The translations under genes and the position numbers were made by a program. A stretch of DNA of 64,000 bases from IMG/VR virus record IMGVR_UViG_3300008107_000170. One strand, 5' to 3'. This DNA is from an uncultured virus (IMG/VR IMGVR_UViG_3300008107_000170) (Duplodnaviria > Heunggongvirae > Uroviricota > Caudoviricetes). The notes under the pieces are model-generated. The model was not told the origin of the DNA, ran no database searches, and saw only the letters and a program-made list of their open reading frames with translations. Numbering within the stretch: the stretch's first letter is position 1; each line of letters begins with the position of its first letter. This document shows, piece after piece, positions 20,815-57,015 of the stretch.

Positions 20815-20921
20815 ACCTATTTGCAAACACTACAGCGGGCTTAGGCCCGCTGTTTTGTTTATCCAGACATTTTTGCTGCAGTAAGGCAACATAGAAGTAG
20901 TCAATTTGTAAAGGGTCTTTT

Positions 20922-22330: not shown

Positions 22331-23812
22331 ATGTCACGTTCATTTTTGACGGGTATTAACCTAAATAAGAACGAACTTCTAAACGCTAGAATCCAGAACC
22401 TGTCTTCAGCACCTTCTAGCCCTGTTGCTGGTCAGATTTACTACAACACTGGCGACAACACCCTCCGCTATTACAGCGGGACTGCATGGGTTACCCTAGC
22501 CCAAGGCGGGGACCTGTCCAGTGCTATTTCAGCAGCAATCGATGCTCTGACCACAAATGACATTGAAGAGGGTCTAAATCTCTACTTTACCGACGAGCGT
22601 GCTCAGGACGCAGTAGGTAACGCAGTTGGAACCGGTCTGTCATACAACGACGGTAGCGGCGCAATCTCTCCTGACCTTACTTACCTAGTAGACAAGACAA
22701 CTGCACAAACGCTAACTAACAAGACGCTTACCTCACCTAAGCTAAACGAGGATGTTGCTGTTACTTCTACCGCAACCGAACTTAACATCCTTGATGGTGC
22801 GACCCTCAGCACCACTGAGTTGAACTACGTAGATGGTGTTACCAGCTCTATCCAGACGCAGTTGGACGCAAAGCTACCTAAGGCTGGTGGCACCATGACT
22901 GGTGCTATTGCAATGGGCACTAACAAGATTACTGGTCTTGGAACCCCTACCGATGCAACAGACGCTGCAACTAAGGCGTATGTTGATGCTGTAGCCGAGG
23001 GGCTCCACATTCACGAATCAGTTAGAGTTGCTACTGGTGCAAACGTTTCAATTGCAAATGGCCTTGAAAATGGAGACACCCTTAGTGGAGTAACCCTTGC
23101 AACTGGCGACCGCGTTCTTGTAAAGGACCAGACAACTACCTCGGAGAACGGTATCTATGTCGTTCAGGCTTCAGGGCAAGCGGTACGTGCACTGGACTTT
23201 GACACTGCACTAGAGGTAGACAGCGGAGACTTTGTTTTTGTAACCTCTGGAACTTACGCTAACACTGGTTGGGTACAGACAAGCCGCCCAGCAACAGTCG
23301 GCACAGATGCCATTTCCTTCCAGCAGTTCTCTGGTGCTGGCACCTTCACTGCAGGTAACGGTCTAACCATAACTGGCAGCGAGTTTAACGTAGTCGGAAC
23401 AGCTGACCGAATTACAGCAAACGCTGACAGCATCGATATTGCTTCTACCTACGCTGGTCAGTCAAGCATTGTTACCGTTGGAACCATCACCACCGGTGTA
23501 TGGAATGGCACTGACATTGCTATTGCAGACGGTGGTACTGGTGCTTCAACTGCTGCTGGTGCTCGCACAAACCTAGGCGCTACTACCAAGTACGCAGTCA
23601 GCAACGGTGCGTTGACCGCTTCTAGCGGCGTAGTTACCTGGACCGTGACCCACAGCCTCGGCACCTCAGACGTAACCGTACAGGTTCGCAACCTTACCAG
23701 CAAGGAACTAGTAGAGGTAGACGTGGTAATCACCGACACCAACACCGTCACCCTCTCGTGGGTCTCTGGTGGCGAGCTGGCAGATGCTTACCGCGTAGTC
23801 GTGGTAGGCTAA
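22331..23812 (+). CDS. Fibre protein
   Basis: QTLTNKTLTSP, ELNYVDGVTSSIQTQLD, DAATKAYVD, GDRVLVKDQ...ENGIY motifs. Confidence 0.8.
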   Translation: MSRSFLTGINLNKNELLNARIQNLSSAPSSPVAGQIYYNTGDNTLRYYSGTAWVTLAQGGDLSSAISAAIDALTTNDIEEGLNLYFTDERAQDAVGNAVGTGLSYNDGSGAISPDLTYLVDKTTAQTLTNKTLTSPKLNEDVAVTSTATELNILDGATLSTTELNYVDGVTSSIQTQLDAKLPKAGGTMTGAIAMGTNKITGLGTPTDATDAATKAYVDAVAEGLHIHESVRVATGANVSIANGLENGDTLSGVTLATGDRVLVKDQTTTSENGIYVVQASGQAVRALDFDTALEVDSGDFVFVTSGTYANTGWVQTSRPATVGTDAISFQQFSGAGTFTAGNGLTITGSEFNVVGTADRITANADSIDIASTYAGQSSIVTVGTITTGVWNGTDIAIADGGTGASTAAGARTNLGATTKYAVSNGALTASSGVVTWTVTHSLGTSDVTVQVRNLTSKELVEVDVVITDTNTVTLSWVSGGELADAYRVVVVG

Positions 23813-23833: not shown

Positions 23834-24073
23834 TTGTCAAGAAAATTTCTAACACCCGTAGGCCTACCGTCTGGCAGCACCTTGCCAGCGGCAGGTTCGG
23901 CGGGAGATTTATTCTTCAAAACTACTGACACCACTGTCTATGCACACGATGGTACATCGTGGGTTGCTCAAAAGACCGCTGCAGGTGAAGGCGGTAACAT
24001 AGACGGTGGAACATCGGGCAGCGTTTACGGCGGTACCACACCAATTGATGGCGGAGATTCAGGGAGTTTCTAA
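23834..24073 (+). CDS. Small fibre-associated protein
   Basis: MSRKFLT N-terminus like 22331; GDLFF; IDGG repeats. Confidence 0.65.
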   Translation: MSRKFLTPVGLPSGSTLPAAGSAGDLFFKTTDTTVYAHDGTSWVAQKTAAGEGGNIDGGTSGSVYGGTTPIDGGDSGSF

Positions 24074-25722
24074 TGGCACAACAAATTCAAATCAGACGAG
24101 ATACAGCGGCAAACTGGACATCAGCAAACCCCATACTTGCCTCTGGTGAAATTGGTTTTGAGACAGACACAGGCCGCTTTAAGATTGGTAACGGAAGCAC
24201 AGCTTGGACTTCTCGTTCGTATGCTGCTCCTGCAATTAACGCCGTGTCTGACCACGCCGCCCTGACTACAAGCGTACATGGAATTGAAGATACCGCAGAC
24301 CTCGTTGTCACTAGCGACTTAGCTCTTCTAGCTCCGCTTGCTGGCCCTACCTTCTCAGGCACTGTAACCCTCCCTAGCACCACTTCGATAGGCGACGTTA
24401 GTTCCACCGAACTTGCTTACGTCAACGGCGTTACAAGCGCCATACAGACCCAACTAGATGGCAAACTAGCATCTAGCACCGCCTCTACCACGTACGCTCC
24501 TTTGTCTGGGCCAACCTTTACTGGGACAGTAACCCTACCAAACACCACATCTATTGGCGATGTTTCATCAGCAGAAATAGGCTACGTAAATGGAGTGACC
24601 TCGGCAATCCAAACTCAGTTAGATGCTAAGGCTCCTCTTGCAAACCCAACATTTACGGGAACCGTCTCCGGCATTACCAAGAGCATGGTTAGTCTTGGTA
24701 ACGTTGACAACACGGCTGATGCTGACAAACCAGTTTCAACTGCAACTCAAACTGCCCTTGACGCAAAACTAGCCTTGGCTGGCGGAACCATGACCGGCAA
24801 GATTACTCTTGACGGAGACCCAAGCCAGGCACTCCACGCAGCAACTAAGCAGTATGTAGATAATCTTGCTGCTGGCCTCCACATCCACGAAGCAGTCCAC
24901 GTTGCTACCACAAATACGCTTGCGGTTTTGTCAGGCGGCACAGTTACCTACAACAACGGAACTGATGGCGTAGGCGCAACCCTGACTCTAGGCACTGCGC
25001 TAAGTACGATTGACGGTCACTCACTAACCAACGGTGACCGAGTTTTGGTTAAGAACCAGGCTACTGCGGCCCACAATGGTATCTATGTAAGGACCTCTTC
25101 TACGGTTCTTACTCGTGCAGATGACTTCAACACTGCAGCCGAGATTGCTGGTGGAGACCTAGTCTTCGTTGAGAACGGCACTCTCTACAACAGCACCTCG
25201 TGGGTAGTAGAAAACGAAGTAAACACTATTGGCACCGACGACGTATTGTGGGCGCAGTTCTCTGGTGCTGGAACAGTGACCGCTGGAACCAACGTTAGCG
25301 TTACTGGACTTCAAGTTTCAGTTGTATCAGACCCCACATTCTCCGGAGTAGTGACTGCTAGCTCAGGCGTAGCCTTCTCAGACGGTACCCAGACTAAGGT
25401 TGGCGTACCATCTATCACCACCATTTCTCAGAAGACCGATTCATACACCCTTGCTAATCTCAACGAGCGAGACACCATTATTGAGATTAACAAGGGTAGC
25501 GCAACTACGCTCACCATCCCTGCAGATGGCACTGTGAACTACCCAGTAGGAACTACTCTAGATATCATCCAGACCGGCTCTGGTCAGGTGACCATCGCAG
25601 GCGTAATCGGAGTAACCGTTAACGCTACCCCAGGCCTAAAGTTACGTACTCAATGGTCATCTGCTACACTATTAAAGCGGGCATCGAATACATGGCTTGT
25701 ATTTGGTGACCTGTCAGCATAA
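24073..25722 (+). CDS. Fibre protein with Mtd N-terminal-like domain
   Basis: IQIRRDTAANWTSANPILASGEIGFETDTGRFKIGNG; repeats shared with 22331; C-terminal LRTQWSSATLLKR...W...GDL. Confidence 0.8.
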   Translation: MAQQIQIRRDTAANWTSANPILASGEIGFETDTGRFKIGNGSTAWTSRSYAAPAINAVSDHAALTTSVHGIEDTADLVVTSDLALLAPLAGPTFSGTVTLPSTTSIGDVSSTELAYVNGVTSAIQTQLDGKLASSTASTTYAPLSGPTFTGTVTLPNTTSIGDVSSAEIGYVNGVTSAIQTQLDAKAPLANPTFTGTVSGITKSMVSLGNVDNTADADKPVSTATQTALDAKLALAGGTMTGKITLDGDPSQALHAATKQYVDNLAAGLHIHEAVHVATTNTLAVLSGGTVTYNNGTDGVGATLTLGTALSTIDGHSLTNGDRVLVKNQATAAHNGIYVRTSSTVLTRADDFNTAAEIAGGDLVFVENGTLYNSTSWVVENEVNTIGTDDVLWAQFSGAGTVTAGTNVSVTGLQVSVVSDPTFSGVVTASSGVAFSDGTQTKVGVPSITTISQKTDSYTLANLNERDTIIEINKGSATTLTIPADGTVNYPVGTTLDIIQTGSGQVTIAGVIGVTVNATPGLKLRTQWSSATLLKRASNTWLVFGDLSA

Positions 25723-25734
25723 TAAGGACCACTA

Positions 25735-26430
25735 ATGAGTAAACGAGCCGGTAGAAAGTCTCAACAGCAAAATGACTTTTTGCAGCCTTCCGCTCCAGTA
25801 AGCGTATCTGCTACTGACGTAGGAACTAACCGTGCGTTTAACAACGGTGCAGCAACCGTGAGTTTTAGTTTGCCTGGTGGCTCTCCTGCTGCTACCTCAT
25901 TCACAGCAACTTCTAGCCCAGGCGGCTATACTGCAACCGGCTCGTCCTCGCCTCTAACTGTTGAGGGATTACAATCAAGCACTTCTTACACGTTCACCGT
26001 AACAGCCACTAACGCTTCGGGAACATCTGCCGCATCTTCGGCTTCTACTGCTATAACCGCCACTACAGTCCCCGATACTATTGGAACCCCGACTGCGACT
26101 GCTAACGTAGACTACGACAATCTAGCTTGGACTGCCCCGTCTACTGGCGGTAAAGGTATCTCTCTTTACAGGTGGACCTCGTCTGACGGAAAAACGGGAA
26201 CTACCACTTCTACCTCTGTAAACATTACTCAGGAAGCTAACACTGCTCAGACATACCAAGTTCGAGCAGAAAATGCAAATGGTAATGGAACGTATTCTGC
26301 CAACTCTAACAGCGTCACGACTTTACCCCCATACTTTCCCCCGTACTTTCCTCCTTATTTCCCACCGTACTTTCCACCGTCTTTTGGGCCATACTTCCCA
26401 CCATATTTCGGCGGGTTTGTAGGAACATAA
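25735..26430 (+). CDS. Fibronectin type III domain protein with C-terminal (PPYF)n tail
   Basis: Two FN3-like repeats (GLQSSTSYTFTVTATNASG; YQVRAENANG) then PPYFPPYFPPYFPPYFPPSFGPYFPPYF. Confidence 0.8.
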   Translation: MSKRAGRKSQQQNDFLQPSAPVSVSATDVGTNRAFNNGAATVSFSLPGGSPAATSFTATSSPGGYTATGSSSPLTVEGLQSSTSYTFTVTATNASGTSAASSASTAITATTVPDTIGTPTATANVDYDNLAWTAPSTGGKGISLYRWTSSDGKTGTTTSTSVNITQEANTAQTYQVRAENANGNGTYSANSNSVTTLPPYFPPYFPPYFPPYFPPSFGPYFPPYFGGFVGT

Positions 26431-26455
26431 ATCAAATAATAACTAGGAGAAATAA

Positions 26456-27112
26456 ATGACTGAAAAAACTTGGACTACAGAAGAGCAGCTAGCCCCAGGA
26501 ATTTTTGTGTACCGTGATGCTCTTACTAACGGCATGGATGTAATAAAGAGGCTAGAGGCAGTCCTAGAAGACCCCTCTACTTACTACAACTATGAAGAGG
26601 CCTTGGTAGGATACCGCCAAAAAATGCCTCAGTACCGTGACTGCTACGACTTTAAATATAAGCGCACTGACATAGACAGCGACCAGTCTGCTGCTGGTGA
26701 TGAGCTAAGGGCTGTCTGGGACACTGTGCATGAGGCCATGGTTGGTCCGGTAGCGGACTACTGCAGAAAATTTCCAATTGGCGAGCTTAAGTACTGGGAA
26801 GCTAGCAATTTTATTAAGTATGGTCCGGGACAGCACTTCCAAGAGCACACCGACCACGGCTTCTCTTACAACAGCACACTGTCTGCTGTTCTTTACCCAA
26901 ATGACGACTATGAAGGTGGGGAACTATTCTTCCGCCTGCAGGGCCTCAATGTAAAAGCGAAAGCTGGGGACCTATTCCTGTTTCCGTCTAACTTCATGTA
27001 CCCGCACAGAGCAATGCCAGTTACTTCTGGATTCAAGTACTCTATTGTGACTATGCTTGATTACAGCGCCAAGTACCACACTCCAGAGATGTATAAAGAT
27101 TCTGGGGACTAG
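26456..27112 (+). CDS. 2OG-Fe(II) oxygenase, prolyl-4-hydroxylase-like
   Basis: KYGPGQHFQEHTDH (HxD), LYPNDDYEGGELFF, FPSNFMYPH, VTSGFKYSIV. Confidence 0.88.
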   Translation: MTEKTWTTEEQLAPGIFVYRDALTNGMDVIKRLEAVLEDPSTYYNYEEALVGYRQKMPQYRDCYDFKYKRTDIDSDQSAAGDELRAVWDTVHEAMVGPVADYCRKFPIGELKYWEASNFIKYGPGQHFQEHTDHGFSYNSTLSAVLYPNDDYEGGELFFRLQGLNVKAKAGDLFLFPSNFMYPHRAMPVTSGFKYSIVTMLDYSAKYHTPEMYKDSGD

Positions 27113-27164
27113 TACCTAAAACACTGCGCACATTAATTCGGAACACGACATTTAGGACTAACAA

Positions 27165-27896
27165 TTGACAAGCATAATTAAGTTTTTTTCTAATCGCTCT
27201 TGGCTAACCCCTAATAGCATGTCAAAGCCGGAACCTATCATAAAAACTATTCCAGAATGGTATAGAAAGTCGGACAAGTTTGCTGTAGACCCCGTGACCA
27301 ATGAAGTCTGGGTAGGCCCTGATGGCGGTAAAATGCCAACATGGAAAGCTTGTCCAGCAGTGTTTGATGTAATGGGCGCGGGGTATGCTCTTATGACCCC
27401 CTGTGATTTAGAGTTCTATCTAGACCAAGAGGGGGTTATACAGGTAAGAATAGAAAACCCCGCATACAAGGATTTTTGCACTAAACGTCCTCCAATGCCG
27501 CAGTTTAAAAACCCGGATGGATATCACCCTCACCATTTTGCTTGGTATCCTGACTGGGGAATCGGTGTTCCAGAAGGCTATAGCGTTCTTTACACCCAGC
27601 CTTTAAACAGGTTTGAGCTTCCTTTTTTAACCACTAGCGGAGTCGTTGACAACGATGTCATAAACCAGCCTGGAATGATGCCGTTTTTTCTTAGCAGGTC
27701 TTTCCTGGGCATCCTGCCCGCAGGCACTGTCTATGCGCAAATGCTGCCGTTTAAACGAGACAACTGGGAGTCTGAGACAGTTATTAGGTCACAAGAAGAG
27801 ATTGTTGAAAAATATAAAGAGTCGGCAGAAACATACAGAATACCTAATGGCGGAGTCTATAAAGACAAGGTTTGGACAAAGAGGTCCTACAAGTAA
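27165..27896 (+). CDS. DUF6065-like protein
   Basis: TWKACPAVFD...GY...P; W.I.VPEGYSVL.TQP.NR; SGVVDND; GT..AQ..PFKR. Confidence 0.55.
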   Translation: MTSIIKFFSNRSWLTPNSMSKPEPIIKTIPEWYRKSDKFAVDPVTNEVWVGPDGGKMPTWKACPAVFDVMGAGYALMTPCDLEFYLDQEGVIQVRIENPAYKDFCTKRPPMPQFKNPDGYHPHHFAWYPDWGIGVPEGYSVLYTQPLNRFELPFLTTSGVVDNDVINQPGMMPFFLSRSFLGILPAGTVYAQMLPFKRDNWESETVIRSQEEIVEKYKESAETYRIPNGGVYKDKVWTKRSYK

Positions 27897-28582
27897 TGAC
27901 GTTGTCGGATAGGGCTTACAAAACTATTTCGGAACTTCTTGCGGAAACCAGAGACAAAGGCGGCCGCTACGTAGAAGCCCCTGAGTTTGTAGTTGACGGC
28001 TATCCTAGGTCTGCTAATACATTCTTGGTTACCGCCTTAAACCTGTCCTGGCCTAATATGTCTGTGAAAAGTCACGGCCACGATTCAAAACATCTCTCAG
28101 CTGCTGACGGCCTAGTTCCGGTAGTATCGGTAATCAGAAACCCAGTAGACGCAATCGCCTCTTACGCTGTTCACCTATCCCTTTATGACCCAGATAGAAT
28201 CAATAATTTAGATTTATTGATTGGCCTCTACGGGGACATGTCGAAGCAAGCCCTCGACAATCCACATGTGCTCGCTATCCCATTTGAGGAAGTAGTCTCT
28301 GATGTAGCCGGCACACTAGACTTGCTAGAGAGCAAATACGCGCTGAAGAATAGGGTGCGCGTTAGTCCTGAGGAAATACTCAGTCAGACGCAAGACCTTA
28401 GTAAGCGGGTTAATTTAGATAAAGAGGCGTTTACTAAAATGGGCCATGTTCCTAGAGACAAGGACCCGGTACACGCAGAAGTTTTGGCAAAACTGCAAGG
28501 CCCAGAGCATGAGAGGGTGCTAAGCAGATTGACTAAGCTGTATAACAGCGTAATTGCCCAGTATTACTCGGGTAATAAATGA
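27896..28582 (+). CDS. Sulfotransferase-like P-loop protein
   Basis: 5'-PSB-like DGYPRSANTFL and 3'-PB-like VIRNPVDAIAS; ATG 27896 via TAATG coupling. Confidence 0.65.
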   Translation: MTLSDRAYKTISELLAETRDKGGRYVEAPEFVVDGYPRSANTFLVTALNLSWPNMSVKSHGHDSKHLSAADGLVPVVSVIRNPVDAIASYAVHLSLYDPDRINNLDLLIGLYGDMSKQALDNPHVLAIPFEEVVSDVAGTLDLLESKYALKNRVRVSPEEILSQTQDLSKRVNLDKEAFTKMGHVPRDKDPVHAEVLAKLQGPEHERVLSRLTKLYNSVIAQYYSGNK

Positions 28583-29280: not shown

Positions 29281-29821
29281 ATGGCTAAAGATAAAAACCC
29301 TGACCCGTATTTTGTGACTCAAATTAAAGACCTTGAGGGTAACTACCATGATTATGAGGTCACCAATAATGCTGATTTTGCGCACCAGACCCATAAAATC
29401 ATCACTAAACATTTTCCTCACTATGAGCCTGTATTAGTTACCAGAAATGACGGTGACTATGAGAAGTCAACTACAGTGGACGCGCAGAAGAAAAGATATA
29501 AGAACTACAGCCAGGTTACGCGAGATGTTGATGCCAAGAAGAGCGCTGNNNNNNNNNNNNNNNNNNNNNNNNNNNNNNNNNNNNNNNNNNNNNNNNNNNN
29601 NNNNNNNNNNNNNNNNNNNNNNNNNCGCTGCTAAGCCAGCCGCTGCTAAGCCAGCCGCTGCTAAGCCAGCCGCTGCTAAGCCAGCCGCTGCTAAGCCAGC
29701 CGCTGCTAAGCCAGCCGCTGCTAAGCCAGCCGCTAAGAAGGCAGCCCCTGCTGTTAAGCCAGCAGCTAAGCCAGCAGCTAAGCCAGCAGTCAAGAAGGCT
29801 GCTGCACCGAAGAAGAAGTAA
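29281..29821 (+). CDS. Protein with histone H1-like (AAKPA)n tail spanning an assembly gap
   Basis: N-terminal globular part, N-gap 29549-29625, then AAKPA repeats ending KKAAAPKKK; frame across the gap is unknown. Confidence 0.65.
29626..29730 (+). repeat. 15-bp tandem repeat CGCTGCTAAGCCAGC (7 visible copies)
   Basis: Perfect copies abutting the N-gap. Confidence 0.95.
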
Positions 29822-29991
29822 TGGACAAGAAGAAGCCCGTCTGGGAAAAGCCAGACCCTACCAAAAAAGACAAGCCGCTATCTAGCAAGAAGAAGGCTGC
29901 CGCCAAGGCTAAGGCCAAGGCTGCTGGTCGTCCTTACCCTAACCTAGTAGACAACATGAACGCAGCAAAGAAGAAGAAAAATGGCAAGTGA
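29821..29991 (+). CDS. Small Lys-rich protein (56 aa, not in ORF track)
   Basis: MDKKKPVWEKP...AKAAGRPYPNLVDNMNAAKKKKNGK. Confidence 0.75.
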   Translation: MDKKKPVWEKPDPTKKDKPLSSKKKAAAKAKAKAAGRPYPNLVDNMNAAKKKKNGK

Positions 29992-30298
29992 AGCTTGGCA
30001 GAAAAAAGAAGGCAAGGCCAAGAAGGGCGGCCTGAATGAAAAGGGCCGTAAGTCTTACGAGAAGGCCAACCCTGGCTCTGACCTAAAAGCCCCAGTTAAG
30101 TCTGGGGACAACCCTCGCCGTGCCTCGTTCTTGGCACGCATGGGCGGAAACCCTGGCCCAGAGCGTAAACCAAATGGCGAACCTACTCGTCTTCTGCTAT
30201 CATTGCAGGCATGGGGAGCATCCTCAAAAGCCGACGCTAAGAAGAAGGCTGCGGCTATGTCTAAGCGACTAGAAAGCAAGAAGAAGAGTGGCAAATAA
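29981..30298 (+). CDS. Basic protein, DUF6321-like
   Basis: AWQKKEGK..KGGLNEKGRKSY...LKAP...RRASFLARM. Confidence 0.7.
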   Translation: MASEAWQKKEGKAKKGGLNEKGRKSYEKANPGSDLKAPVKSGDNPRRASFLARMGGNPGPERKPNGEPTRLLLSLQAWGASSKADAKKKAAAMSKRLESKKKSGK

Positions 30299-30476
30299 AA
30301 AGCCTTCGCCTTTGAACAGGGCGGCTCAGGCTCGGCGTAACGCTGAGTCTAAGGCGCTTCAACCAAAACTTAAAGCTGCTGCTAAGGGCACTGGCCCTAT
30401 CAAGAGCGCAGCTGAAAAGCGGATGAGCACCCGCTCAGCTGTAAAGAACAATGCCATCAAGGACCAGGAGAAATAA
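30288..30476 (+). CDS. Small Lys/Ala-rich protein
   Basis: 62 aa basic ORF in the cluster. Confidence 0.65.
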   Translation: MANKKPSPLNRAAQARRNAESKALQPKLKAAAKGTGPIKSAAEKRMSTRSAVKNNAIKDQEK

Positions 30477-30527
30477 TTATGTGCAATGGAAACTGCACCT
30501 GTGGCAAGGAAAAGAAGGAGCCTACTA

Positions 30528-30722
30528 ATGGCTAACACCCCAAAACCAGTTCGTAAGACCAGAGCTGCCGGTATGGCAGTGTCTAGGGCTAGCGGCACTA
30601 AAAAAGAGCCTGGCGCTTACGCTAAGTTTGAAAGAGCTTCAGACAAGATGGCTAAGGGCGGTCCAAAGAAGGTCGGCGGAGCGCCTAAATCACAAGGGCC
30701 TAAATCGAAAGGAGCCTACTAA
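30528..30722 (+). CDS. Small Lys-rich protein
   Basis: ATG 30528 (MANTPK) after AAGGAG RBS. Confidence 0.7.
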   Translation: MANTPKPVRKTRAAGMAVSRASGTKKEPGAYAKFERASDKMAKGGPKKVGGAPKSQGPKSKGAY

Positions 30723-30994
30723 TGGCTAACGCTAGACAGTTAAAGAAAATGGGTCAAACGGCATACAAAGCCGATTCCGGAAAAACCGATAGCCCTAAGG
30801 CGCGAGCAATCTCTAAAAAAACTACTAAAATTGTTAACAACGCTCGGTCAAATAAAACTTTTGATTTTAAAAGAACCCCGGCAGAGAACAAGGGTAGCGT
30901 AGTAAAGGGTCAAACTGGAAAAAAAGCTAACGCAGTAATTGAAGGCCGAATTAGCGAAGTTAAAAAAGAGGCTAAGAAGGGCGGGAGCAAATAA
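30722..30994 (+). CDS. Small Lys-rich protein
   Basis: 90 aa; AAGGAG RBS; TAATG coupling. Confidence 0.7.
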   Translation: MANARQLKKMGQTAYKADSGKTDSPKARAISKKTTKIVNNARSNKTFDFKRTPAENKGSVVKGQTGKKANAVIEGRISEVKKEAKKGGSK

Positions 30995-31245
30995 TGGCTA
31001 AGAAACCAGCATTCCTAAAAGGTAAGTACACCGATGAAAAGGACAAGAAGAAAGACGCCGAAATGACTAAGCGTCTAAGTCCTAAGGAAAAGGCTAAGTT
31101 CAAAGAAGAAGACAAAAAGCACCCAAAGCCAAAGACCATGGCTGAGGACAAGGCTTCGGACGCCAAGATTATCAAGGACATCAAGTCTAATCGTAAGCCA
31201 GCACCTAAGGGCAAAGCACCTGCTAAGAAGCCAGGTAAGAAGTAG
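30994..31245 (+). CDS. Small Lys/Asp-rich protein
   Basis: 83 aa, followed by a terminator. Confidence 0.7.
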   Translation: MAKKPAFLKGKYTDEKDKKKDAEMTKRLSPKEKAKFKEEDKKHPKPKTMAEDKASDAKIIKDIKSNRKPAPKGKAPAKKPGKK

Positions 31246-31263: not shown

Positions 31264-31291
31264 AGCCCTGCGAAAGCGGGGCTTTTCTTTT
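31264..31291 (+). terminator. Intrinsic terminator
   Basis: AGCCCTGC-GAAA-GCGGGGCT followed by TTTCTTTT. Confidence 0.85.
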
Positions 31292-52869: not shown

Positions 52870-53262
52870 TTACTTAGCGTCTTCTCCAGGAGCAACGGTA
52901 GCTTCGTCATCGTCATCGTCCTCGTTGAGGTCGTCGTCTGAGTCAAAGTTGACATCATCGAAATCAAAGTTGTCATCCTGCTTTACCTTCAAAGCGGCCT
53001 CTAGGTTCTCGTTGCCATCGGCGGCCTTAGCCACAGCCGCACGGAACGCATTAGCGATGTCCTGCGGGTTCAAAGTTCCTGACCAGGCTAGGGTCACACC
53101 AATGGTGGTTAGTACGACAGCAAACGCTGAACCTACACCAATTAGTGAACCGAGTACCCAGTCACCGTTGGTAGCAATAGCACCAACACCTGTACCTGCA
53201 AAGAACGTTGCAAGTAGAAGACCGAACGCGCGGGCAAGAATAGTTTTAATGAGCTCTTTCAT
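52870..53262 (-). CDS. Holin-like membrane protein
   Basis: Two TM helices and an acidic tail; coupled to the M23 gene. Confidence 0.65.
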   Translation of the reverse strand: MKELIKTILARAFGLLLATFFAGTGVGAIATNGDWVLGSLIGVGSAFAVVLTTIGVTLAWSGTLNPQDIANAFRAAVAKAADGNENLEAALKVKQDDNFDFDDVNFDSDDDLNEDDDDDEATVAPGEDAK

Positions 53263-53747
53263 TATTTAGCTCCTTCTGCAGCTGGGGCTGCGACTGGGGT
53301 TGAGTTTTTCTTCCAAAGTTTGACTAAGTCAACCTTGTCTGATGTTGCTCCGAATACACCCTTAACCTTGCGGCTAGCGGTTGCGTGAAGGTGGTTTCCG
53401 CTTGATGCGGTACCAGTTGTTCCTACGAGGCCGATAGTCTCTCCAACCTTGATTGGGTCTCCGACCTTTAGGGTAGGGACCTTCTGTAGGTGGCAGTAGC
53501 CGATGTACCAGATGTTACCTTCTTTGTCAGCGACTGACTGTACAATTACGTTGCCGAGAACCTTAGACTCGCCAACAAACTTGATTCGTCCGTTACCAAC
53601 GGCTGGAATCTTGGTGCCACCAGGCATAGCCCAGTCAGTACCAGAGTGTGGCTGAAGTTTCATCTTCTTGCGGAATGCACTCATTTCACCGTAGTGCTCG
53701 GTTACCTTCTTTTCAGGGAATGGTAGTTTCCATGGTGTAAATGCCAT
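53262..53747 (-). CDS. M23-family peptidase (endolysin candidate)
   Basis: HSGTD (HxxxD), YCHL, HLH. Confidence 0.85.
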   Translation of the reverse strand: MAFTPWKLPFPEKKVTEHYGEMSAFRKKMKLQPHSGTDWAMPGGTKIPAVGNGRIKFVGESKVLGNVIVQSVADKEGNIWYIGYCHLQKVPTLKVGDPIKVGETIGLVGTTGTASSGNHLHATASRKVKGVFGATSDKVDLVKLWKKNSTPVAAPAAEGAK

Positions 53748-55793: not shown

Positions 55794-56330
55794 ATGAAAA
55801 AGCTCATTGCAGTTAGTGTTATCGCACTAGTAATGACAGGGTGTTCCGCAAGTATTGGGCCCCAAGAAAAGGCTAGTGCAGTAGCCGTTCAGCAGGTTGT
55901 GGAACCTGCGCCTGAATTCATGGCTAAAGTCGCTCTTATGGCTGAACGTCACAGAATTCAAAAAGTAGTAACCCGCCTGGAAAAGCGCATCGGAAAAACC
56001 TGGTACGTATTTTCAGGCTCAACGCCTAGTGGCTGGGACTGTTCAGGTCTCGTTTACTGGGCATATCAACAATTAGGAATAGAAGTCCCTCATTCAGCAA
56101 ACAAGCAGGGACACCTAGCCAAGGGTGTAAAAGACCCGCAGGTTGGGGACATTGTGGTATGGGGCTATAAAGGCTCCAAGTCTTACTACCACGCCGGAAT
56201 TTATATCGGAGATGGAAAAGCAATCCATGCAGGTTTCCGCAAGGGGACCACTACCCAGGTCATTGACGTGGATAGTCCAGCATTTAAAGGCAGTACGGTT
56301 AAGTTCGTACGGCTAATTAAAACCTTGTAA
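55794..56330 (+). CDS. NlpC/P60 peptidoglycan hydrolase with lipoprotein-like signal
   Basis: YVFSG...GWDCSGLV, HAGIYIGDGKAIHA; LVMTGC lipobox-like. Confidence 0.88.
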   Translation: MKKLIAVSVIALVMTGCSASIGPQEKASAVAVQQVVEPAPEFMAKVALMAERHRIQKVVTRLEKRIGKTWYVFSGSTPSGWDCSGLVYWAYQQLGIEVPHSANKQGHLAKGVKDPQVGDIVVWGYKGSKSYYHAGIYIGDGKAIHAGFRKGTTTQVIDVDSPAFKGSTVKFVRLIKTL

Positions 56331-56333
56331 CAG

Positions 56334-56360
56334 AAAGGGCCTCCGAAAGGGGGCCCTTTT
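56334..56360 (+). terminator. Intrinsic terminator
   Basis: AAAGGGCCTCC-GAAA-GGGGGCCCTTTT. Confidence 0.85.
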
Positions 56361-56478
56361 GCTATACTGTAGGGGACACGCCAACCGGGTGTCGCAAACA
56401 AGTACTGTGCTTCGGGCAGTAAAATACATAAAATACTACGTATTTTGTCTAGGCACAGCTATCGTCGAAAGAGATAAC

Positions 56479-57015
56479 ATGCTAAACCGTAATGATGATT
56501 TCTACCCACCTCGTCCAGAAAAAGACTGGCACAAGAAACCATACATTTCTCCTCAGGACCCCCGCATTTCCGAGGGTATTAAGAAACCAGAACCGCCTAG
56601 GGTTCTCACCATCACCGACCTGTTCCCAAATCTGGGGCGACTATCTATTGGCTGGTCACCAATTCTCGACACTCTCAAAGAGGTCACTGCAACCAAACCT
56701 TCTTACCCGCCTTACGACATCGTCAAGATTGACGACGAGACTAACGTTCTAAATGTCGCTGTGGCAGGATTTAGCAAGAAGGACCTTACCGTGTCTGTTC
56801 AAGACTCTGTCCTCAAGATTGAGGGCAAGAAGAAGGGTAGGCCGGAGGGCGAAGTAGTTTACCAGGGAATCGCTGGGCGTAACTTCACTCTATCCCTGGC
56901 TGTGGCAGAGTTCTGGGAAATCAAGGACGCCAAGGTAGAGGACGGCATGCTGGTCATTACCTTTGTGAAAGAATTGCCTGAAGAAAAGAAGCCTAAGGTA
57001 ATTGACATCAAGTAG
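56479..57015 (+). CDS. Small heat-shock protein (Hsp20/IbpA-like)
   Basis: SYPPYDI, VAVAGF, YQGIAGRNF, AKVEDGMLVI...PEEKKPKVIDI; ATG 56479. Confidence 0.9.
   Translation: MLNRNDDFYPPRPEKDWHKKPYISPQDPRISEGIKKPEPPRVLTITDLFPNLGRLSIGWSPILDTLKEVTATKPSYPPYDIVKIDDETNVLNVAVAGFSKKDLTVSVQDSVLKIEGKKKGRPEGEVVYQGIAGRNFTLSLAVAEFWEIKDAKVEDGMLVITFVKELPEEKKPKVIDIK

Follow-up and report, generated by a model that had tools for sequence, protein, structure and literature searches.

The 64,000-nucleotide (nt) stretch of DNA considered here, which we call the window, is a fragment of the genome of an uncultured contractile-tailed phage (IMG/VR record IMGVR_UViG_3300008107_000170). Our subject is a run of four plus-strand genes at the end of its fibre module, in which a structural protein with a proline- and aromatic-rich (Pro-aromatic) tail is followed by a putative hydroxylase; among relatives, this kind of tail and orthologs of the hydroxylase are almost always found together. 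The first gene (25735..26430) encodes the candidate substrate, a 231-aa protein with an FN3 domain (PF00041 over residues 39-105, 32 bits against a cut-off of 25, E 1.5e-7) and a second domain that is PKD-like. It is followed by genes for a 218-aa 2-oxoglutarate (2OG)-Fe(II) oxygenase of the prolyl 4-hydroxylase (P4H) type (26456..27112, PF13640), for a 243-aa phrog_7084 protein, a diverged relative of DUF6065 with a predicted dUTPase-type fold and an invariant Cys63 (27165..27896), and for a protein with a predicted sulfotransferase fold, 228 aa long from the ATG at 27896 (27896..28582; an alternative TTG start lies at 27872). All four open reading frames (ORFs) are located as a first-pass annotation had placed them. 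Directly 5' of the FN3 gene is a plus-strand gene (24073..25722) for a 549-aa fibre-like protein that matches Pfam Mtd_N (2.1e-17) and many PHROG tail-fibre families, which places the cassette at the fibre-module end, and the spacings across the genes from 24073 to 28582 are 12, 25, 52 and -1 nt.

The tail itself is encoded on the plus strand by seven 12-nt units (26326..26409) that read PPYF four times, then PPSF, GPYF and PPYF. Its position at the end of the fibre module agrees with the first-pass annotation, as does the view that the peptide rather than the DNA repeat has been kept: mean pairwise identity among the units is 0.71 for DNA as compared to 0.86 for peptide, and 46 of the 72 same-residue codon pairs differ synonymously. 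Tandem Repeats Finder (TRF) reports a 12-nt period at the tail with 78% matches. The tract contains neither Lys nor Arg. Among the 315 open stretches of 60 aa or longer that were examined in the window, PPxF occurs more than once only in the tail ORF, which has six. The cassette had been likened to a cluster for a ribosomally synthesized and post-translationally modified peptide (RiPP), a loose analogy: what would be modified here is a structural protein of 231 aa with two FN3-type domains, encoded in a fibre operon and with no evident leader.

The oxygenase matches PF13640 (2OG-FeII_Oxy_3) well above the cut-off (50.5 bits against 27, E 4.1e-13), and its atlas neighbours are 100% PF13640. In enzymes of this type HxD...H forms the iron triad and a basic residue serves the C5 carboxylate of 2OG; here H131, D133, H184 and K194 are invariant in 41 orthologs, the Lys lying ten residues past the distal His, as the earlier description of an HxD...H oxygenase with a C-terminal Lys requires. 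The best solved relative of the ortholog profile is the prolyl 4-hydroxylase of Bacillus anthracis (PDB 3itq, 5hv0; E 1.9e-4, 24 bits), in an alignment that spans the HxD motif, the distal His and the Lys; the similarity is weak, with PiuC (4e-3) and collagen lysyl hydroxylases (7e-3) close behind in the profile ranking, and in a single-sequence search PiuC ranks first. Judged by sequence, then, the oxygenase is a relative of collagen-type peptidyl hydroxylases, and its sequence does not determine its substrate.

Association of the tail with the oxygenase among relatives

Viral contigs searched with the FN3 protein yielded 451 relatives, and we studied the best 79 of these 451 loci, representing 68 distinct proteins. 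Their C-termini fall into a Pro-aromatic class, a Phe-Gly class (FSPFG, GAFG) and a class with Gly-rich domains (PF21722). The Pro-aromatic motifs comprise PFF, PPFF, PPYF, PPSF, FCPxF and APPxFF, to which PPHF and PPRF were added later; the tracts span 14-166 residues, with medians of 43% Pro and 47% Phe. The Pro-aromatic tail is thus a family trait of a large freshwater, probably actinobacterial, phage group. Clustering of 445 downstream ORFs gave, among other families, the PF13640 oxygenases (c0, up to six paralogs per locus, one in the window); the family of the window's third gene, phrog_7084 (c1, 48 loci); true DUF6065 (c2, 39 loci, all Pro-aromatic, absent in the window's clade); an oxygenase-like family of about 220 aa (c3, 14 loci, all Phe-Gly); and the sulfotransferase-like gene (c8, 4 loci, all in the window's clade).

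The co-occurrence and adjacency of tail and enzymes, which the first-pass annotation had put forward for testing, were scored from three starting points. Beginning with the tail, and taking distinct FN3 proteins with at least 4 kb of downstream sequence (17 loci were left out) and at least 40% identity as the definition of a close oxygenase, we found an oxygenase downstream of 33 of the 34 Pro-aromatic tails as compared to 0 of the 19 Phe-Gly, Gly-rich or other ends. Three Phe-Gly loci do have downstream oxygenases, at 24-33% identity, and Phe-Gly contigs searched over their whole length gave oxygenases at 27-36% identity or none. The single miss, L063, proved to be no counter-example: an ortholog (60%), six paralogs, c1 and c2 lie 7-13 kb upstream on the same contig, in an array whose start is 22 nt past another Pro-Phe-tailed gene (164 aa), with the usual order of fibre, tail and array.

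Beginning with the enzyme, 80 loci were picked by the oxygenase alone (at least 59% identity) and scored where at least 2.5 kb of upstream sequence was present. A same-strand Pro-aromatic ORF lies within 6 kb upstream in 52 of 53 such loci, and in the 53rd it lies at 7 kb; the gap has a median of 856 nt and a minimum of 24, and the misses fall at contig ends. Beginning with the repeat, a degenerate DNA pattern for PFFPPFFPFFP found at least 123 stretches, from which 77 new loci were analysed; P4H-type genes follow downstream in 59 of the 67 loci with at least 4 kb downstream. Among the eight exceptions, strong orthologs (E 1e-57 to 1e-124) lie elsewhere on six of the contigs; a seventh gave only a weak oxygenase match and the eighth none. 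From all three directions, therefore, the oxygenase ortholog and the tail are almost always encoded together.

The association extends to the composition of the tail. Tracts with 0-17% Pro are accompanied by 0-2 P4H-type genes and those with 30-48% Pro by 1-6, with one tract in the latter range whose array is not adjacent and lies elsewhere on the contig; P4H-type genes are absent from relatives with Pro-free GAFG or Gly-rich ends. The Phe-Gly loci, in turn, have c3 (14 of the 14 loci with this family; 1-3 copies per locus, in L016, L025, L027, L031, L034, L037, L043, L044, L055 and L065 among them). Its atlas structural neighbours are 98% PF13759 (template modelling (TM) score 0.73-0.76), it matches gp47 of Synechococcus phage Syn9 at 88%, and it has conserved H-D-H and G-H-P-H motifs, so that on its predicted structure the family looks like a double-stranded beta-helix oxygenase. 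Enzyme sets thus appear to be specific to tail class, a conclusion drawn from the confinement of c3 to Phe-Gly loci. The upstream fibre gene was considered as the partner that the enzyme tracks and was rejected, because its homologues are common to loci with and without the oxygenase. Several genomes encode more than one Pro-Phe-bearing fibre protein, of up to 1566 aa, yet have a single array, which suggests that the oxygenase would act in trans. The contig G012 (that of locus L306; 114443 bases, rated 100% complete) has 14 oxygenase-profile matches, encodes the 1566-aa fibre-like protein with an internal Pro-Phe tract and would make a good reference genome for the system.

We propose that the Pro-aromatic tract of the fibre-module FN3 protein would be the substrate of the co-encoded P4H-type oxygenase. 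The two proteins would be produced jointly at a late stage of infection. Prolines in the (P)P[Y/F]F units would then be hydroxylated by the oxygenase in the way in which prolyl hydroxylases of the collagen type, and those from algae or viruses, act on Pro-rich repeats, and the modification would alter how stiff, soluble or sticky this polyproline-like aromatic rod is. The window's clade would represent a minimal system: a single oxygenase, a dUTPase-fold partner and, in this clade only, an enzyme with a sulfotransferase fold that might sulfate either a Tyr of the tail or the newly made hydroxyl. What the analysis shows is the gene content, predicted folds, conserved catalytic residues, and co-occurrence and adjacency across relatives; that tail and oxygenase form a substrate-plus-hydroxylase unit is a reading in which our belief and our doubt are about equally balanced. 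From the former we infer the tail as substrate, proline as the residue, the location on the virion, and every step given to the sulfotransferase-fold and dUTPase-fold proteins. Of the substrate-plus-tailoring unit originally envisaged, the tail-oxygenase pairing, the peptidyl-hydroxylase relatives and the sulfotransferase fold have held up; the fixed four-gene cassette has not, since the sulfotransferase is limited to one clade and most relatives have 2-6 oxygenase paralogs and two DUF6065-type genes.

The same gene order might instead reflect conserved synteny only, with the oxygenase, the dUTPase-fold protein and the sulfotransferase forming a metabolic or host-takeover island that lies behind the fibre module by chance in this lineage and acts on host proteins, nucleotides or small molecules and not on the tail. 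We think this somewhat unlikely, and several observations nonetheless favour it and weigh against a modified tail. On a neighbour-joining tree (Biopython) of 56 distinct FN3 cores, with tail class scored by Fitch changes, the class changes 4 times, where shuffled classes gave 13.3 changes on average and at least 9; there have been about four independent tail-class switches, and the association is largely lineage-structured. Because tail class is clustered by lineage in this way, the large counts reduce to some three to four independent contrasts, the informative ones being that of L076 with L074 and L077, that of L032 and L040 with L021, and that of the main Phe-Gly clade with the Pro-aromatic ones. 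Linkage alone could switch tail and enzymes together, since they are physical neighbours, and all loci, matches binned into metagenome-assembled genomes (MAGs) included, belong to one broad freshwater phage group. Within the Pro-aromatic class, loci with more repeat units do not have more oxygenase genes (Spearman 0.12, p 0.5, n=32, with counts censored by the 6-kb flanks), and the correlation of oxygenase number with Pro fraction over all classes (rho 0.52, p 3e-4, n=45) stems from differences between classes.

Enzyme content adds to these points. The similarity of the oxygenase to solved P4Hs is weak (E ~1e-4), the arrays of relatives often end beside a class II ribonucleotide reductase or glutathione-peroxidase-like gene, and the partner protein has a nucleotide-enzyme fold, with halovirus homologues of phrog_7084 that adjoin thymidylate synthase and DNA polymerase and no annotated oxygenase. 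The closest oxygenase homologue in a cultured phage, that of cyanophage ACG-2014f (39% in the catalytic core), is encoded in an island of metabolic genes in which there is no Pro-rich gene, and the fibre genes beside the Syn9 array have no Pro-rich tract. The accessible part of Iyer et al. 2010 (PMC2938197) reads Syn9-type arrays as secondary-metabolite clusters, and for the chlorovirus PBCV-1 the available text of a review describes hydroxyproline as never found in virion proteins (PMC7019647). The ACG-2014f island, together with the fibre neighbours of the Syn9 array, also means that the substrate which the first-pass annotation suggested for a class of phage oxygenases cannot be extended to phage oxygenases in general, those of cyanophages included.

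Other observations speak against synteny only. The ortholog is found without a Pro-aromatic ORF only where flanks are missing, relatives that have the same upstream fibre gene and FN3 core and other tails do not have the ortholog, the enzyme family changes with tail chemistry, and the spacing looks operon-like within a late structural unit. Some of the same facts bear on a narrower alternative, namely that the target of the oxygenase is a different residue or fibre protein (for instance Asn, Asp or Lys within an FN3 or fibre domain), the tract itself staying unmodified, serving for structure or anchoring and doing no more than mark this class of protein. In sequence scores, PiuC and the collagen lysyl hydroxylases come out about level with P4H, Syn9 has such enzymes beside fibres without Pro-rich tracts, and several contigs have multiple Pro-Phe fibre proteins and one array. 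However, it is the tract that the ortholog accompanies, and not the upstream fibre gene or the FN3 core, and P4H-type genes differ in number between Pro-poor and Pro-rich tracts as given above; we consider this alternative improbable.

The C-termini of the relatives show further features. In L015:5989-7287, L027:1632-2816, L043:6001-7281, L050:3730-4971, L051:6001-7329 and others a domain of some 170 aa comes after the Pro-aromatic or Phe-Gly tract; it opens with Cys, closes with ...VHNK (HN-K) and is Hint/intein-like. Three of seven such domains have sub-threshold Intein_splicing matches (E 1e-5 to 8e-4), and an end of this kind could permit self-cleavage right after the tract; the FN3 protein of the window has no intein-like domain. 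In L018, L024, L028, L035, L048, L049 and others the C-terminal 25-40 aa are Cys-rich, with 6-10 Cys, and these ends of Pro-Phe tracts may be disulfide knots or bind metal; among the genes of several arrays is one for a glutathione-peroxidase-like protein (PF00255, 2.8e-9). The third FN3 class, in L068-L072, L075 and L078-L080, has the Gly-rich end (PF21722) with ...GGSGIVII.Y..., and similar ends are found in Syn9 gp36, gp38 and gp39 (L210:10856-14328), annotated as tail-fibre assembly proteins and lying just 5' of the dioxygenase array. The Phe-Gly tails (FSPFG or GAFG) are reminiscent of nucleoporin FG repeats.

The dUTPase-fold and sulfotransferase-fold genes

The third gene had been labelled DUF6065-like, and this stands as a statement of distant homology and not as one of membership, because the protein has no Pfam match even at E 10, PF19541 (DUF6065) included, but its family, c1, is homologous (hhalign 96%) to c2, which in the relatives is true DUF6065 (E 8.5e-25). 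Its predicted fold is that of the dUTPase / dCTP deaminase superfamily. W32, C63, G73 and D81 are common to c1 and c2; c1 keeps an invariant G-[IV]-[IV]-D-x-D, which may correspond to dUTPase motif III, and c2 has Ser at both Asp positions. The protein matches Syn9 gp43 at 97.3%, and the occurrence of this gp43-type family beside dioxygenase arrays was already described in the part of Iyer et al. 2010 available to us (PMC2938197). The phrog_7084 family also occurs in haloarchaeal myoviruses of the HF1/HF2/HSTV-2 type (KC117376.1, 28132-29001, that is L001:5896-6765, and 48 other records), and this distribution over bacterial phages and archaeal viruses was unexpected.

The likely start of the fourth gene, the ATG at 27896, overlaps the upstream stop (TAATG) and gives the same length, 228 aa, as the database relatives. 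The gene had been described as encoding a PAPS-motif sulfotransferase-like protein (PAPS, 3'-phosphoadenosine-5'-phosphosulfate). The predicted structure bears this out as to fold, that of PAPS-dependent sulfotransferases; Pfam family membership does not follow, the match to Sulfotransfer_3 (E 0.032, 14.9 bits) being far below the cut-off of 27, with no match to Sulfotransfer_1 or Sulfotransfer_2, so the assignment depends on the predicted fold. There is no sequence match in the PDB, nor any sulfotransferase Pfam match among 13 distant relatives. P-R-S-A-N-T-F, S-H-x-H and R-x-P-x-D-A-x-x-S are invariant in 33 sequences, and these may be the 5'-phosphosulfate-binding (PSB) and 3'-phosphate-binding (PB) motifs. 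The fold matches span small-molecule, glycan and peptide sulfotransferases, and since cytosolic SULTs and heparan sulfotransferases score as well as or better than the peptide-acting StaL/Teg12 and tyrosylprotein sulfotransferase, the sulfate acceptor cannot be read from the fold.

We consider it slightly more probable than not that this protein is unrelated to the tail, as a clade-specific moron that would sulfate a host envelope glycan, lipid or small molecule, and correspondingly doubtful that it is linked to the tail. The gene is limited to the window's clade (8 of 8 viral-contig loci; 4 of 38 metagenome loci), other Tyr-containing tails do not have it, and any link to the tail comes from one lineage. 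Its distant relatives (25-49% identity) lie on contigs without Pro-rich or oxygenase neighbours, no PAPS-synthesis genes were found in the window, and the fold matches include small-molecule and glycan as well as peptide sulfotransferases. Against a moron stand the overlap of its start with the stop of the upstream cassette gene and the composition of the adjoining tails: the four distinct tails next to a sulfotransferase gene are the most Tyr-rich of 87 tracts, at 21-25% Tyr, as compared to a median of 0 and a maximum of 16% in tracts without one. So too do the operons of dioxygenase and sulfotransferase with tail-collar proteins described in the accessible text of Iyer et al. 2010 (PMC2938197). 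The viral contigs with the sulfotransferase gene represent one clade, and its metagenome relatives lie in unrelated contexts.

Genome setting and likely host

Elsewhere in the window are the genes for terminase (14091), portal (16606), major capsid protein (19287), tail sheath (32502) and tube (33835), as well as baseplate genes and a replication module; GC content is about 48% and no tRNAs were found in the window. The capsid protein is 70-71% identical to those of the Streptomyces phages BRock, Alone3 (71%) and LuckySocke, and the host is probably a freshwater actinobacterium, because the related contigs all come from lake metagenomes. Short contigs of the phage group (L220-L229) occur in MAGs labelled Chitinophagaceae, Lishizhenia, Flavobacteriales and Acidimicrobiaceae, as well as Luteolibacter, Sediminibacterium and Beijerinckiaceae; this placement is most likely mis-binning, so the labels are uninformative on the host. 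The nearest record, G001, is likewise uninformative because it is 100% identical over the region. As to a cultured model, the FN3 protein, the sulfotransferase and true DUF6065 gave no tblastn match in 50,697 phage records (low-complexity filter on). Alone3 has the module order of the window, with a tailspike gene in its capsid-to-sheath interval and no annotated oxygenase there.

Another fibre-like gene (22331-23812) lies between capsid and sheath. A consensus scan gave terminator-like hairpins on the plus strand at 20832..20853 (a 9-pair, 7-GC stem and T-run), a possible start boundary of the unit, and next at 31264..31283 (an 8-pair, 6-GC stem and T-run), a possible unit end, with a single weak 5-pair site on that strand in between; this arrangement is compatible with fibres and cassette forming one late transcription unit. 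Downstream of the cassette, 29281-31245 encodes a run of small, very basic Lys/Ala/Pro-rich proteins, among them one with an (AAAKP)n repeat broken by 77 masked bases (N run 29549-29625), which may be DNA-binding internal proteins. They were rejected as a general substrate of the oxygenase, because only this virus has them among the 42 oxygenase loci that extend 8 kb or more downstream. An Hsp20-family protein (56359-57015), an NlpC/P60-CHAP hydrolase (55794-56330) and an M23 peptidase (53262-53747), listed as lysis or host-interaction genes, are unrelated to the finding.

Significance and known systems

In aquatic viromes, P4H-type 2OG oxygenases count among the most abundant "auxiliary" genes, and what viruses use them for has been described as cryptic (PMC9301287). 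For the one viral enzyme of this type that has been characterised, no natural substrate is known (PMC7019647). The pairing described here offers a direct bench test, since the repeat is co-encoded, co-varying and chemically simple, and requires a synthetic peptide and one 218-aa enzyme; the window has this system in its smallest form, with a candidate sulfation step in addition. If our reading is true, phages would chemically tailor their host-recognition apparatus, with a bearing on adsorption, host range and virion stability in lakes. A wider and more tentative idea, which we would not at present call likely, is that freshwater actinobacterial phages tailor their own fibre proteins with enzyme sets matched to tail chemistry, turning a greasy repeat into a hydroxylated rod or adhesive that in the window's clade would also be sulfated. 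P4H-type enzymes would then serve Pro-aromatic tails and another oxygenase family the Phe-Gly tails, and the sulfated repeat would be a functional analogue of extensins or mussel foot proteins. On this idea the tail would give the many viral "prolyl hydroxylase" genes their first natural substrate, and no phage structural protein before it would have been both hydroxylated and sulfated.

In the literature searched, supplements being outside the search, we found no description of Pro-aromatic fibre tails with oxygenases, nor any on DUF6065. The nearest precedent for enzyme and repeat is PBCV-1, whose repeats are of the Pro-Ala-Pro-Lys type; Eriksson et al. in 1999 reportedly dealt with both its prolyl 4-hydroxylase and the virus's own Pro-rich repeats. 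As far as the accessible text goes, PBCV-1 shares with the window a small viral P4H-type 2OG oxygenase and virus-encoded Pro-rich repeats as candidate substrates, and its P4H is active on Pro-containing peptides (PMC7019647). It differs as a eukaryotic giant virus without gene adjacency; the window has a bacterial host, a Pro-aromatic tract and an adjacent, co-varying pair of candidate substrate and putative hydroxylase.

Syn9 (gp41-gp54) is the nearest phage arrangement, with classical 2OG dioxygenases directly 3' of tail-fibre genes and the accessory family with a dUTPase fold and conserved Cys; its gp43 and gp47 are the matches of the third gene and of c3, respectively. Its array comprises ten dioxygenases of several families and two halogenases, whereas the window has one P4H-type enzyme and a repeat as candidate substrate. 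For the order of chemical steps the likeness is to bacterial operons of dioxygenase and sulfotransferase, in some cases with PAPS synthetase, for which the part of Iyer et al. 2010 (PMC2938197) available to us predicts hydroxylation and then sulfation of co-encoded tail-collar or collagen-like proteins; in both, a hydroxylase would act on a co-encoded structural or repeat protein, and a sulfotransferase on the hydroxyl group so formed. The operons differ in being cellular, in their substrates, which are tail-collar or Gly-rich collagen-like proteins, and in having genes for PAPS synthesis, and their comparison with the window is one of logic and not of sequence. The elements are therefore known separately, as viral P4H and viral Pro-rich repeats in PBCV-1, as dioxygenase arrays with a dUTPase-fold protein in Syn9, and as the predicted hydroxylation-sulfation operons of Iyer et al. 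2010; specific to the window are the minimal cassette, the Tyr-rich tail and the sulfotransferase.

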